64,000 nt of DNA from Verrucomicrobiales bacterium (GTDB taxonomy: Bacteria; Verrucomicrobiota; Verrucomicrobiia; Limisphaerales; J093), in assembly GCA_015075445.1 (NCBI GenBank), contig JABTUJ010000038.1, positions 11,149-75,148 on the forward strand, given 5' to 3'. Below are positions 11,105 to 16,913 of this stretch, in pieces (positions within the stretch are counted from its first letter, which is position 1; every line of letters starts with the position of its first letter). The translations under genes and the position numbers were made by a program. The notes beneath the pieces are model-generated. The model worked only from the letters and a program-made list of their open reading frames with translations. It did not search any database and was not told where the DNA came from.

Positions 11105-11165
11105 GGTCACGCCGCGAGCGCCGAAGCTGGGAAACCGCGACAGACGGTAGGCTCCGACCCTGACG

Positions 11166-11312
11166 AAAAGCGGCGGTGAACCGCGCGCACTCCAGACGCT
11201 GCGCGACCTCCACAGCGTCCGACATGCGCAACGCGTTTGGAGTGCGGCGACTTCCAGCGGCGCTTTTCGTGCCCCCCGCCCCTTCTCCCGTTACGCAAAG
11301 CGGCGGTCAACC
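11166..11312. repeat. REP cluster family A (AAAGCGGCGG..CGCACTCC / GGAGTGCGGCG..CGCTTT)
   Basis: Inverted REP pair 11166-11207 and 11226-11267; third unit from ~11297 is interrupted by the IS and continues at 14755; related copies at 14806-14850 and 32739-32781. Confidence 0.75.
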
Positions 11313-11434
11313 GTGTTGCTTCGGCAAGCGTGCCGGTGCCCAAAATTTCCAGGCGCGGGGTCTGAAAGGCCGCACGCAGCGGGCGCGCGGGCCATGGCAG
11401 GTCGATGGCTCTGGACGCGGGGGTGGCGGGCGAC

Positions 11435-12997
11435 TCAACTGGAGTCGAGGGCCTGGAGGCTCTGCTGGTAGTTCAAGGCAGCCAGGCCGCAGGGTGGTTG
11501 AGCACGGCTTTGGCGTGGTCGTGGAGGGCCTGGAAGTAGACGAAGGGGTTGGCGCCGGCCAGGCGGCAGGTGTGGATCAAGCTCATGAACAGGTCGCCCA
11601 CGCGGGCCCGTTCTGCGTTTTGTAGCCCAGCGAGTTCTTCCGATGGAGGATGGCCGCCTTCAGCGCTCGCTCACAGATGTTATTGGACAGCGGGGCTCCC
11701 GGCTCCCGCAGGAACAGGGTGAGCGGTTCCCAGCGCTTGAGCATGTAATGGATGGCTTCACCGAGGCCGGAGTTGGGTTCGACCACTTTCTGCTCCAGTT
11801 GTTCCCGCATCCATTGTTTGAGGCCCTCCAGGATCGGCGCGCTCTTTCCTGGTGCAGGCGTAAACGATCGGTCGCCGAGAGTTGCTGCTCTTTGGCCTGG
11901 GCGTCATGCTGGAAGACCAGCGCGAGGTCTTCCAGGACCTTTGGCACTGCTCGGGAAAGTTCTCCTTCGTCGACGAAGGTCCTCCGTCCGTGCGGTAGGC
12001 AGTTGGCCAGCAGGGCTTCGAAGTCTTTAGGCAGGTTGCGCGAGAGCCCGTCACATGTGAATGGCTTGGCCAGCCAGGGGCCCGGTGTTGGAGCAGTTCG
12101 GTGAGGTTTTCCCCGGCGTGGTTGCCGCCGGTGAAATAGAGGGCGATGCAGCGATCCTCGACTTGGCAGAGGATACTGGTGGTGAAGATGCCCGTGCGCT
12201 CGCATCCCGCCTGGGCGCGCTCCCGCTTGAGGCTCTGGATGCGCATCTTGGTGTCATCATTGTGGATGAGCTGCGCCTGGGCGGCCAGCCGGGTGAGTTC
12301 CTGGTGAGCCGGCTGCGGGTCGCGGGCGGATTGTTCCATCAACTCCCATTGCGTGGCGGCCGGCAAGGGATCCCCAAGTCCCTTTGCAGCTTCTCCAGTC
12401 GGTAATGCGGCATACCCCACCAAAGCGCAGGATCCCGATCATCAACCCCACGTTGGGATCGTGGCGAGTGGTTCCGCCTCCGGCGGCGCCGGGGGCCGTA
12501 AAGGTTTTGCCGCACAGGCAACAGCGCAACACCTGCAGGGCGAAGACCGTGGCCTGGACTATCGGCTGCGCCACAATGCGCACAATCCGGCTGGGGCCCG
12601 TTCCGCAGCCGGGCCTTGTCGTTACGGCACTCCGGACAACGATCTCCCGGTTGCAGGCTGGGATGGGCCACCTGGACGCGCCCTGCGCCCGCATACTGGC
12701 TGGCCCCGTTGCGACCGTGCCCGCGCACCGGCCGCTTGGGGAACCGCTGGGCTCGTGCCACCCTGGCCGGGAAACACGTTCCGGGTCTTTTCAGTCTTGG
12801 CCCCAAAGATCAACCGCTGCAACCGCCCCACCGTCGCGTTCTTCTTCTCGATGACTCCCATCAGCCACTGCAGCGTGCCCAACAAGGCCGCCACCGTCTC
12901 ATACAAGGCTGCCGGCAGGTGCTGCTGGAGCTGGACCAGCAGCTCTGCAATTGCCCCGATCGAGCGAAGTGATTTCCGGCGCCCGGGTCTTACTCAT
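11435..12997 (-). pseudogene. tnpC: IS66 transposase TnpC, frameshifted
   Basis: Fragments RLQRLIFGAKTEKT, LIHNDDT, CLPHGRR.F, EPNSGLGEAIHYMLKRWEPLTLFL..PLSNNICERALK. Confidence 0.85.
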
Positions 12998-13874
12998 GAC
13001 CCTGAGCCCAGGCGGGCGCGAAAGTCACCGCCCAACGGGTAGACCCACAGCTCTTTGCGCGGTTGATCCCGTCGGCTGGTGCGGGCGTTGTGACCGCGGC
13101 CCGTGGTCAGTCCCAAGCAGATCCAGTTGGCGGCGCGGTAACAGCTCCCCTGGAAACGGGCCGGGTCGATGAACGTTTCCAACAGATGAATCGGATGGGC
13201 GTAGAGCGCTCGCCAGTCCGCGGAGATCCGGCGCGCGATCCGCCCCAGGAGGTGGCTGGCCAACCGCGGCACCTCCAGCCAAGGCATGATCAGGGAAGCG
13301 GGTATTGTAGCCGATGAGGTGGAGGTGCTGGCGGCGCACCTCGGGCCGCCAGCCGATGAACCGGTCGCGCGCGGCCAGGTGGCGCGGCGCCGACGACCAG
13401 GCCATCGCCGCGATCGGCTCGCTGCCGGCCAACACGAGGTACTTCAAATGTTCCCCAACGGGCTGGGTGTAGCGCAGGTAGTGGTGGGTCTGCATCAACT
13501 GACCAAAGAGGGCTCTTGGGCCGTGCGCCGCACCTGGCGGATCTCCAGGCGCCCAGTTCACGCAAGCGGCATTGCCGCGGCCCTTCCACAGCGGCAGGAC
13601 GGGGCGGGGGCCGGCGCTCCACCACATTGTTGGGTGGGGACATCCGTTTGGCCGGCAACTCAATCAGCCCGGCCCGATGCAGTTGCAGTAACAAGCTGCG
13701 GCAAACCATGTCGCGCAACGCGCCGTTGGGCTGGATCCAGTTCCAGGCCCGGCACAGCTCGGCCGAGAGCCGACGGCGACTCCAGAGCGGGTTCTGGGCG
13801 ATCAGACCCTGGATGAACGCAGTGTCTTCAGCGCGGATTTCCCGGCCACGGTAGCGGAGCAAAACCAACGACAT
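12994..13874 (-). pseudogene. DUF4338 (Druantia DruA-like) domain passenger gene, frameshifted
   Basis: RYRGREI..SRRRLSAELC..W.QPNG.LRDMVCR.LLL.L; HHYLRY..VGEHLKYLV; LASHLL..LLETFIDPARFQGSCYRAANWICLGLTTGRG; stop overlaps tnpC start (ATGA). Confidence 0.8.
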
Positions 13875-13930
13875 GCCCCGGAGTGTAAGGGGCCAATCCT
13901 GGAACGCAGGGACGATCGCCGGTTTTCGGT

Positions 13931-14291
13931 TTACCCGGCCACCGGCACCGCGCGCCACAGCGGCGCCGCCACCGCACCGGACGGATCGCCATTCCAGAGC
14001 AACAGGTGCAGTTGATGGGGCTCAAGCGCAGGGCGGCACTGGCGCCGGGCTTGGGCCAGCCACCGAAGCGGCCTTGCGAGAGTCGTTTCTGGCAACACCA
14101 GTAGCCTTGGCCGTCATAGGTCAGGCACTTGATGGCGTGGCCACGCCGCGACCGGAAGACGAACAGCGCCCCGGTTTGCGGGTCGCTACCAGTGCCTGAC
14201 GGCACAGCGCAGCCAGGCCATCGATGCCGCGGCGGAAATCCACCGGTTCGACGGCCAGCAAAATGCGCATCTGCGGGGTGATCTGGATCAT
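13931..14291 (-). pseudogene. tnpB: IS66 accessory protein TnpB (Orf2), frameshifted
   Basis: MIQITPQMRILLAVEPVDFRRGIDGLAALC..FVFRSRR..IKCLTYDGQGYWCCQKRLSQGRF. Confidence 0.88.
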
Positions 14292-14674
14292 GCTCGCCTC
14301 CAGAACGCTTGGCCACCCCACCACCGTCGCCGGATCGCACGGGAACTCCAGCGTCATCTTGGCCCCCTGCCGATCGGACAACTCAATGTGGCACCCGGTG
14401 GTGACTTGGGGCGGCCGCTGGCGGGGCTCAACTCGACAAAGGTCGGCGGTGCGCTGGACCACCCGCGAGGGATGCCTGGGGCAACTGTCGTTTCAACTTG
14501 CTGTAATCCAGACGCAGGGCACGAGCCACCGGCCCACCCCGTGGGTCGCGGCCAAAGTGGCCGCCGAGCTCCAGAGGGCTTGAGTCGCGTGGCTCCAGCT
14601 TGGGACTGGCGCCAACGGTCTAACTGGTCGCGTAGCTCAGACAGATCGGTCGACGAGAATTTCGTTTGTGGCAT
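14288..14674 (-). pseudogene. tnpA: IS66 TnpA-like HTH protein, frameshifted
   Basis: LRDQLDRWRQ..; PTFVEL; CHIELSDRQGAKMTLE; position immediately upstream of tnpB. Confidence 0.6.
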
Positions 14675-14754
14675 AGGTCGGTTCGTTGCGGTTGTCTGCC
14701 TCGAACCGTAGCCGCGGCGGTTTTACCCTTCACGCACTCTTGCCGAAGCAACAC

Positions 14755-14903
14755 GGTCAACCGCACGCACTCCACACGCTCCGCGACCTCCCCACCCCCC
14801 GGCAGGCGCAACGCGTTTGGAGTGCGGCGACTTCCAGCGGCGCTTTTCGTCAGCCGCGTTGCAGCGGTGCTTCCCCCGAACGCCTCCTGACGTCGGCGCC
14901 TAC
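14755..14903. repeat. Remainder of REP family A cluster plus one GTAG-type REP
   Basis: ccgcacgcactcc (14761), gcgcaacgcgtttggagtgcggcgacttccagcggcgcttttcgt (14806-14850, same as 11226-11270), gcctcctgacgtcggcgcctac (14882-14903). Confidence 0.75.
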
Positions 14904-15398: not shown

Positions 15399-15520
15399 TG
15401 GTTGAACGGCGTCGTGGCCTGCTAGCCATCGACTACCGGGCAACGTAATCGAGCCGGGTTGACGGGAGAAGCCAGAAATAGTTGCGCGATTCGGGCAACG
15501 ATCCTCCGCCACGACTCCGT

Positions 15521-15710
15521 CTTGCTCCTGCTCTTGCTCGGTGCTCTTGCCTTGCTCTTGCTCTTGCTCTTGCTCTTGCCCTCAGCTGCCGCCGGATGAT
15601 GGGTGTGGGCGCGTTTCCTCGCGCAGTCAACGTCGAGATTCGTAGCGTGTTCATGCGGGATCGGACCGGAGCAAGAGCAAGAGCAAGAGCAAGAGCAAGA
15701 GCAGGAGCAG
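15521..15710. repeat. Inverted pair of hexamer arrays (CTCTTG)n ... (GAGCAA)n around an ~88-bp spacer
   Basis: Arrays at 15521-15580 and 15669-15710 in opposite orientation. Confidence 0.8.
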
Positions 15711-15830
15711 GAACCTTGCGCCGGGCAGTGGACTCGGGCATTCGAGGCCTTTCCTGAGAACGCGCCGAGATTAGCGCCAAGAGAGAAGGCGGAGGATTCG
15801 CGGGAAACGTCCATCCCCCACGCACCAAGC

Positions 15831-15856
15831 AAAAGGGGCGCCTCACGGCGCCCCTT
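15831..15856 (-). terminator. Rho-independent terminator after the isomerase gene
   Basis: Minus strand AAGGGGCGCC-GTGA-GGCGCCCC-TTTT, 26 nt downstream of the stop codon at 15882. Confidence 0.65.
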
Positions 15857-15881
15857 GTCAGCGAAAGGATCTGCGGGGTCT

Positions 15882-16913
15882 TCAGGCCCCCATGCCGTCC
15901 TCGAAGGATCCGGCGGCGGCGGGCCAGCAGAGGTGATCGCGCACGAAGGCGATGCCGTTGGCGCTGGTGTAGTCCAGGTCCTTGTGGGCGCTTTCGGCCT
16001 CGACCACAAGCGGGGCGGTCGGACGGCCCATGACCTGCTTGTAGCGGGCCGGGTAGCCAATCTGAATGAGCAACTCGGCGTACCGCTGCATGTTGATGTC
16101 GCCCGACGGCAGGTCCACGAACTGCATCCCGCGCTGCGGCCAGTTGCCGTTCATCATGCGGAGCGGGAAGCCGGGACGGATGACGAAGTTCTTGATGTGC
16201 GCGGCGTAAACGCGGGGCCCGACCTTCAGGAACCGGGTCTCCCAGCTTTCCCCTTCCCAGCAGTGGCTCGGGTCGGCGTTGACCGCGAGGCATTTATCGC
16301 CGTCGCAGATGCTGACGAGCATGTTGAAGTCGTCGGCGCACATGGCGCCGGTGCCCGGGTGGATCTCGTGGCACAGCACGATCCCGCGGTCGTTGGCGGC
16401 CTGGCGGATCTTGGCGGTCTTCTTCACGAACCGCTCCTGGCCTTCCTTGATGAGGTCGAAGTCTCCGCCAGCCCAGAAACCCCACGGATAACCGCTGGCC
16501 ACTTCCCAACCGAACGCCACGCCCCAGAAGGTCGGGAGGACCTTGACGCCCAACTCGATGGCGAGGTCGAACAACCGGAGGAGGTAATCCTCCGCCCAGG
16601 CCTCGATCTTCTCCGGTGCGAGCTTGGCCACGTCGGCGGGAATGAACGGCCGGATGCTCGGGCTGCCGGTCCAGGCGGTGGTGTGCACCCACAGCGGGCA
16701 GTGGCAGGAGATGCCGTCGAGGCTCAGACCGGCCTTCGCAAAGGTCTCCTTGATTTCCGCAGCGCTCTTGAAGCCGGAAGCCCCCTGCAACATGTAGTTG
16801 GACGGCTGGGCACCCGCGGCGCCGGAACGCTTCGCGTACGCGAGGAAATCGGCGAGGGATTTGGCGCCGTGCTGGGCGCCTTCGATCGAGGCATGATAAA
16901 CAGGTTGTGCCAT
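15882..16913 (-). CDS. Sugar phosphate isomerase/epimerase (xylose isomerase-like TIM barrel)
   Basis: HEIHPG, VNADPSH, AHIK, GDIN, VEAE metal-binding motifs. Confidence 0.85.
   Translation of the reverse strand: MAQPVYHASIEGAQHGAKSLADFLAYAKRSGAAGAQPSNYMLQGASGFKSAAEIKETFAKAGLSLDGISCHCPLWVHTTAWTGSPSIRPFIPADVAKLAPEKIEAWAEDYLLRLFDLAIELGVKVLPTFWGVAFGWEVASGYPWGFWAGGDFDLIKEGQERFVKKTAKIRQAANDRGIVLCHEIHPGTGAMCADDFNMLVSICDGDKCLAVNADPSHCWEGESWETRFLKVGPRVYAAHIKNFVIRPGFPLRMMNGNWPQRGMQFVDLPSGDINMQRYAELLIQIGYPARYKQVMGRPTAPLVVEAESAHKDLDYTSANGIAFVRDHLCWPAAAGSFEDGMGA

Follow-up and report, generated by a model that had tools for sequence, protein, structure and literature searches.

The stretch of Verrucomicrobiales DNA analyzed here (64,000 nucleotides in full; hereafter the window) contains an insertion sequence (IS) of 3442 bp, at window positions 11313–14754, that by its transposase, its TnpB, its orf1, and its target-site duplication almost certainly belongs to the IS66 family and that deviates from the canonical three-gene plan of this family in having a fourth gene, a member of the DUF4338 family, between tnpB and tnpC. 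The DUF4338 gene appears to be an integral part of the element, members of its family are found beside or fused to transposases of several other families, and its product is predicted to contain a GNAT domain that most closely resembles Mom of phage Mu. The explanation toward which we lean as a whole is that the DUF4338 protein is a catalytically active, transposase-coupled, Mom-like enzyme that would act on nucleic acid and serve transposition.

The genes of the element are all on the minus strand, and its ends are perfect 16-nt terminal inverted repeats (11313–11328 on the tnpC side, reading GTGTTGCTTCGGCAAG inward, and 14739–14754 on the orf1 side); with the flanks included, the inverted repeat extends over 31 nt at 90% identity. 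The same 8-mer, GGTCAACC, stands at both flanks as a target-site duplication, at 11305–11312 on the tnpC side and at 14755–14762 on the orf1 side. These features agree with a preliminary description of the window, in which perfect 16-bp repeats starting with GTGT, an 8-bp duplication, and the gene order tnpA-tnpB-DUF4338-tnpC had been proposed; the order is the same in intact copies of the element and is reproduced by Pfam matches to the open reading frame (ORF) fragments of the window, where TnpB_IS66 is followed on the minus strand by DruA/DUF4338 and then by DDE_Tnp_IS66. The source genome (8.2 Mb in 100 contigs) contains five further copies with the same termini, and these are intact, 3475 bp long, and identical to one another. 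That the element is mobile is shown by the identity of five of its six copies and by the flank repeats found at five of the six, which are exact 8-bp repeats at four copies and a 9-bp repeat at one; the remaining copy has none.

The frameshifts of the window copy, for which repair from other genomic copies had been suggested, are overcome by the five intact copies, which give all four genes whole. Mapped from an intact copy, tnpC lies at 11435–12997 and encodes an IS66-type DDE transposase of 526 residues (P0004) that matches PF03050 (E = 1.3e-45) and NF033517 (E = 1.5e-63; 215 bits against a cut-off of 180). The Pfam zf-IS66 and LZ_Tnp_IS66 models have no match in this protein; two CxxC pairs are invariant in the TnpC alignment, and the tnpC fragments in the window match PF03050 and PF13817. 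The DUF4338 gene lies at 12994–13874 and encodes a protein of 294 residues (P0001), predicted to comprise an N-terminal winged-helix-like domain and a Mom-like GNAT domain, that matches PF14236 (E = 1.2e-28; 100.6 bits against a cut-off of 27), as do its fragments in the window. The tnpB gene, which is IS66 Orf2-like, lies at 13931–14291, and its product of 120 residues (P0002) matches PF05717 (E = 2.3e-27; 95.3 bits, cut-off 26.6) and NF033819 (E = 9.1e-27; 92.8 bits, cut-off 50). In the tnpA position, orf1 (14288–14674; P0003, 131 residues) matches no Pfam or NCBIfam family and shares 43% identity (E = 3e-19) with the ORF that occupies the same position in an ordinary three-gene IS66 element of a Thiodictyon plasmid. 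In the intact copies, both the orf1/tnpB overlap and the overlap between the DUF4338 stop codon and the tnpC start codon read ATGA, the latter being the coupling that had been read from the window.

Canonical IS66-family elements such as IS66 and IS679 reportedly have three genes, tnpA-tnpB-tnpC, and the usual ends of IS66 elements start with GTAA. The element in the window resembles the three-gene elements in having an IS66-type DDE transposase and a TnpB that score above family cut-offs, a homologous ORF in the tnpA position (in the Thiodictyon example), an 8-bp target duplication, terminal inverted repeats, and an ATGA overlap between orf1 and tnpB. It differs from them in that a fourth gene with its own promoter-like pair stands between tnpB and tnpC, in that tnpC is coupled to the DUF4338 gene rather than to tnpB, and in that its ends start with GTGT.

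The four-gene arrangement is not peculiar to this genome. A scan of one genome per species gave 598 related stretches, 562 of them confirmed, and contexts were taken from the best 80, in which the DUF4338 protein is 50–84% identical to the query and which come from Verrucomicrobia, Acidobacteria, Planctomycetes, Proteobacteria, Chloroflexi, and others, as well as one archaeal metagenome-assembled genome (MAG). The order tnpB-DUF4338-tnpC on one strand, for which a survey had been proposed, is present at 57 of these 80 loci. At 10 others, DUF4338 and tnpC are followed by an inverted tnpB-orf1 pair; at three, the upstream side is lost at a contig end and tnpC is downstream; at one, tnpC is downstream with no tnpB within reach; and at three, a more divergent IS66 transposase is downstream, so that an IS66-type transposase gene directly follows DUF4338 at 74 of the 80 loci. 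The remainder comprise two loci with tnpB upstream and no clear tnpC, two in which the contig ends just past the DUF4338 gene, and two, both from one MAG, with no adjacent transposase. The occurrence of orf1-tnpB in both orientations fits an element built of two separate units, orf1-tnpB and DUF4338-tnpC.

At the 28 loci in which all four genes are covered over at least 80%, median identity to the query is 34% for Orf1, 61% for TnpB, 58% for DUF4338, and 49% for TnpC, and a 4-nt overlap of the DUF4338 stop and tnpC start is present in 14 of the 28. By these comparisons, the DUF4338 gene appears to be integral to the element and is conserved about as well as tnpB and better than tnpC. The term passenger, under which the gene had been introduced, is therefore wrong: it is conserved like tnpB, and its family also adjoins or is fused to transposases of other families. 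In relatives, candidate ends of about 24 nt resemble those of the window element and begin with GTGT or GTGA (the search pattern itself required GTG[TA]), and exact 8-bp flank repeats were found by this pattern-based search at six of them; an initial, cruder inverted-repeat search gave imprecise ends and was superseded by it. The gene order common to the 57 loci and the recurrence of similar ends support the proposal that the fourth gene makes this element one of a distinct IS66 subgroup with GTGT-type ends. The closest relative (locus L017) has an in-frame stop within the first 83 codons of its DUF4338 gene (L017 5001–5249). Identity to the query is 84% for both its TnpB and its DUF4338 protein but falls to 54% for its TnpC, a pattern suggestive of a mosaic element.

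Expression of DUF4338 together with the transposase, as the preliminary description had envisaged, is supported by the ATGA overlap and by a conserved promoter-like pair for DUF4338-tnpC (13882–13909, minus strand). The pair consists of a −35-like hexamer at 13904–13909 and the −10-like TACACT at 13882–13887, which had been placed 7 nt before the DUF4338 start codon and is found there; the first base of the −35-like hexamer of the window copy (13909) differs from the version in contigs assembled from sequencing runs. Among 72 distinct regions upstream of the DUF4338 gene in relatives, the exact 8-mer TTGCGTTC is present in 63 and the −35-like and −10-like pair in 53. The spacer is 17 nt long in 44 of these 53, the −10 element likewise ends 6–7 nt from the start codon in 44, and the pair is found in only 2 of 1600 random windows of the same loci. 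This geometry relative to the ATG would place the start of the transcript at or next to the start codon, consistent with the notion of a leaderless DUF4338-tnpC message. The pattern is unmatched before the DUF4338 gene of the IS4-like element described below, and the pair is claimed for the IS66-type elements.

A profile search of the source genome with the DUF4338 family revealed further elements, among them a second four-gene IS66 element with a DUF4338 gene. Another is an IS4/IS701-like IS of 2556 bp, present as six intact copies and one broken copy (contigs C50, C30, C17, C11, C21, and C35; loci L009–L015), which has perfect 18-bp inverted repeats and 9-bp duplications in all three copies examined. 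The DUF4338 gene of this IS, at 48% identity to P0001, overlaps that of a DDE transposase of 437 residues with no Pfam match and just a weak hit to IS4. DUF4338 is also found fused to a Tn5-type transposase (two copies, contigs C57 and C12), and the GNAT part only (profile positions ~104–290) is fused to an ISAs1-type transposase in four identical copies (C32, C37, C46, and C81) and a variant (C10). The IS66 copy that has no target duplication (C10:125396–128870) lies about 1 kb from the ISAs1-type fused element on C10; either recombination between copies or nested insertion may be the cause.

Beyond the source genome, 8 of 17 long family members in a representative library contain a transposase domain (DDE_Tnp_1, Tn5-type, DDE_5, IS66, or ISAs1-type), one contains extra helix-turn-helix (HTH) domains only, and eight contain nothing else. 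In a tree of 40 sequences, DUF4338 groups by partner family, with 25 IS66-linked sequences in one clade, and its topology requires no fewer than three switches between IS66 and other partners. With 8,682 clusters at 50% identity (E ≤ 0.001), the family is large, and its spread is patchy: members were found in 17 of the 201 genomes taken as a sample of the phylum and in none of 14 control genomes. Taken together, the sequence comparisons suggest that the link of DUF4338 is with transposases generally, IS66 being one family among them. A locus on Thiodictyon plasmid NZ_CP020372.1 (282572–287344), in which an integrase and an IS91 transposase gene stand between a DUF4338 gene and an IS4-family transposase gene, has the appearance of a DUF4338-IS4 element into which a second element has inserted.

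These contexts bear on whether the gene could be a Druantia-type defense protein, DruA, that is present in insertion sequences by chance, or a neutral passenger acquired once. Such an origin would account for the match to PF14236, the Pfam family named after DruA, to which both proteins belong. However, no DruA model or other family was matched in a PADLOC scan at E ≤ 0.1, and in the source genome every intact context examined adjoins or is fused to a transposase gene rather than druB–druE homologs (DruB-E). The conservation of the gene, its promoter-like pair, and its stable order over many phyla likewise speak against a neutral passenger, and we regard this explanation as highly improbable. 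No function of DruA was found in the literature searched, and the text of the YprA preprint does not contain the term DruA.

The structure of P0001 was predicted from a 59-sequence family alignment with a predicted local distance difference test (pLDDT) score of 91.0. In the model, residues 1–70 would form a small N-terminal domain of a hairpin and three helices; a linker with little order follows, and the GNAT domain begins near residue 105. The resemblance to a Mom-type GNAT that had been suggested for this protein is borne out by two aligners. With Foldseek, the comparison that had been proposed, the top match is Mu Mom (8bv8; E = 1.1e-6, 19% identity), and ordinary acetyltransferases follow from 3e-5; with VIA-align, Mom is again first (Z = 14.7 over 170 residues, root-mean-square deviation 4.1). 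The motif on which the suggestion had been based aligns with the FADER...VYQASNF block of Mom, and Mom is the sole other Pfam family matched: 22 of the 59 family members match PF25680 at E ≤ 0.05, the best at 1.7e-6, and no other GNAT family in Pfam is matched by any of the 59. With 29.6 bits, the fused relative P0263 exceeds the cut-off of the Mom model (27.1). A profile search of solved structures returned just a weak eS25 match (E = 0.46), Mom being missed by sequence.

According to excerpts of PMC13219725, Mom is a GNAT for which Gly-tRNA(Gly) is the glycine donor and N6 of adenine in double-stranded DNA the acceptor, its key residues being H58, Y59, R111, S124, D149, R151, and Y159; excerpts of PMC10853773 term DUF4338 a GNAT domain. 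In the sequence alignment, H133 and Y134 of P0001 pair with H58 and Y59 of Mom, S208 with S124, D238 with D149, and Y247 with Y159. These positions are retained across the family at H58 in 59 of 59 sequences, at Y59 in 55, at S124 in 57, and at Y159 in 55, and the D149 position is Asp in 32 and Glu in 20. The GNAT domain is best viewed as a probable sister of phage Mu Mom, to be called Mom-like and not a Mom. It differs from Mom in its low identity (14–19%) and in the extra N-terminal winged-helix-like domain, and its gene is found in insertion sequences beside transposases, unlike mom, a phage gene that stands beside com.

A GNAT fold would also suit an ordinary acyl-CoA-dependent enzyme that acetylates a protein, either the transposase or a host factor, and thereby tunes transposase activity. 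Hundreds of CoA-dependent acetyltransferases, including protein N- and lysine-acetyltransferases, align to the model with Z of about 12–13, and fusion to a transposase suits a protein substrate in cis. CoA-dependent GNATs carry a glycine-rich motif, Q/RxxGxG/A, in the loop between strand 4 and helix 3. On inspection of the alignment by eye, this loop in the DUF4338 proteins is without the motif, and Mom is the best match by structure, profile, and Pfam, whereas none of the 59 members matches a CoA-dependent GNAT family in Pfam. We therefore consider a CoA-dependent acetyltransferase unlikely.

An improbable further alternative is that the protein assists the transposase without being a catalyst, as a DNA-binding or architectural partner whose GNAT domain serves only as a scaffold. 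The winged-helix-like N-terminal domain, the basic GRGR loop, and the want of an equivalent to Mom R111 would be in keeping with such a role, whereas the near-invariance of the residues at the positions of catalytic H58, Y59, S124, and Y159 of Mom in 59 diverse sequences would not be expected from it, and the ISAs1 fusions retain the GNAT part only. The N-terminal domain can be described only as winged-helix-like, with weak HTH_32 matches in 4 of the 59 members. Elements whose ends are unrelated have closely similar versions of this conserved domain, and a specific reading of the inverted repeats by it is therefore unlikely.

The likeness to Mom raises the question of whether the gene is instead cargo with an anti-restriction or anti-defense role, its product hypermodifying the DNA of the host or of a carrier plasmid or phage and its link to the transposase amounting to co-expression. 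Mom is the closest structure and, in excerpts of PMC13219725, protects DNA from restriction, and the presence of relatives at 50–84% identity in many phyla and in one archaeal MAG would accord with highly successful horizontal spread. Coupling and fusion to several transposase families are not needed for anti-restriction, however, and the HTH-like insertion of Mom is missing. The DUF4338 family has no match among 50,697 phage records and is present in 2 of 72,556 plasmid records, where RefSeq names the matches "DUF4338 domain-containing protein" (free) and "ISAs1 family transposase" (fused). Together with the absence of any PADLOC match, these results neither show nor favor the anti-restriction or anti-phage function that the preliminary description had entertained, and we consider it quite unlikely. 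The fusions argue for action in cis, or a role in transposition itself, and against a free-standing anti-restriction or defense role.

To return to the Mom-like, transposition-serving enzyme that we favor, the element would comprise two transcription units, orf1-tnpB transcribed from the left end and DUF4338-tnpC transcribed from the conserved internal promoter into a leaderless message whose two genes are translationally coupled. The DUF4338 protein would be an active acyl- or aminoacyl-transferase directed at nucleic acid, with an aminoacyl-tRNA or another non-CoA donor as in Mom. Made with the transposase and working with it, it would most likely place a covalent mark on DNA, and a mark on the element, its ends, or its target could control or favor transposition. 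Of the two parts of this proposal, the gene contexts indicate that DUF4338 probably serves transposition, and the structural comparison makes it quite possible, if somewhat doubtful, that the protein modifies nucleic acid.

Several observations weigh against this proposal. The advantage of Mom over ordinary GNATs is modest (Z = 14.7 vs. 13.1 for the next GNAT chain), and the profile comparisons have low probabilities: the DUF4338 family against the single Mu Mom sequence gives E = 0.012 at a probability of 3.5%, and when the family is compared by hhalign with an alignment of 28 Mom sequences, the match spans 151 columns with E = 0.0013 and a probability of only 18%. P0001 itself has no Pfam Mom match at E ≤ 0.1. 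Among the key residues, the essential R111 of Mom has no clear equivalent in the DUF4338 alignment and R151 aligns one position off R241; the HTH-like insertion of Mom (residues ~175–209) is replaced by a basic loop of about 18 residues (~258–275) with lower pLDDT. That insertion is essential in Mom, according to excerpts of PMC13219725. The N-terminal domain alone has no Foldseek match at E ≤ 0.001, and its best VIA-align matches, mostly to winged-helix proteins, are weak (Z up to 5.6). A simple sigma-70 scan of the intact element found no sites, so that TACACT alone means little, and the conserved pair was detected solely by comparing relatives. The sets used for the tree and the fusion scan were hand-chosen, and the fusions in the representative library could be artifacts of gene calling, although those in the source genome are uninterrupted ORFs in several copies. 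Finally, enzymatic activity, a DNA substrate, a non-CoA donor, and an effect on transposition are properties that we infer for the protein from its predicted structure and its contexts.

To our knowledge, insertion sequences encode little apart from a transposase and a small number of known helper proteins. IS21 istB and IS66 tnpB are second, coupled accessory genes of insertion sequences, and Dam methylation controls IS10 and IS50. DUF4338 is like istB and tnpB in that an accessory protein would be made with the transposase and, if the enzyme marks DNA, like the Dam cases in that transposition would be controlled by a DNA mark; it is unlike all of them in that the element itself codes for the putative marking enzyme, whose family has not been described in insertion sequences. 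In the literature searched, which did not include the ISfinder catalog, no paper connecting DUF4338, DruA, or Mom with insertion sequences was found, and the text of PMC13219725 contains neither "transpos" nor "Druantia".

A large DUF4338 family thus appears repeatedly as one unit with different transposase families, and its only close structural relative hypermodifies DNA. If DUF4338 marks DNA or controls transposition, it would constitute a new layer of transposon biology and would give DUF4338/DruA a first testable function. A more far-reaching version, which we put forward only tentatively, is that a Mom-like DNA transferase, possibly one that uses aminoacyl-tRNA, is a general partner of DDE transposases of the IS66, IS4/IS701-like, Tn5-like, and ISAs1-like types, so that the element writes its own covalent DNA mark, and that the same chemistry also accounts for the DruA component of Druantia. 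Were this so, the mark could be a self-encoded epigenetic control, a label on target or ends, or a form of immunity.

Compared with the five identical copies, the window copy of the element has all four genes frameshifted. The alignment contains 37 indel columns, mainly in runs of C or G, at which the window copy lacks 35 bases and has 2 additional ones; 20 of these columns fall in tnpC, 9 in orf1, 6 in DUF4338, and 2 in tnpB. There are 16 substitution columns, many of them beside indels. That single-base deletions in homopolymers outnumber substitutions suggests an unpolished consensus more than decay. In contigs assembled from the DNA runs of two studies, the element is intact and about 10 times as deep as its flanks; such contigs are a collapse of all copies and therefore cannot decide whether the frameshifts of the window copy are real. 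Contigs of two RNA libraries overlap parts of the element, including 13632–14791, but the flanks are similarly deep, and this coverage is thus no demonstration of transcription. A run-contig joint between 11203 and 14882 was left unused, one of its sides being 22 letters long and within repeats.

The insertion site of the window element is a copy of a palindromic, repetitive extragenic palindrome (REP)-like repeat of about 100 nt that is split by the IS. An intact neighboring copy at 11174–11270, outside the IS, is 90% identical to the right flank (14754–14850) and thereby serves as an empty-site paralog, from which the insertion and the duplication can be read directly. The repeat is present at 11158–11270 and 14754–14853 of the window and frequently occurs as tandem pairs; blastn of the genome gives 158 matches on 47 contigs, of which 58 are at least 90 nt long, and run contigs over this repeat region (14726–14876) reach about 30–40 times the flank depth. 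Farther along the window, at 15430–16300, the ORFs of both strands encode long repetitive stretches (CSCSCS, KSKSKS, ARARAR, and LALALA, for example), which indicates a short tandem DNA repeat.

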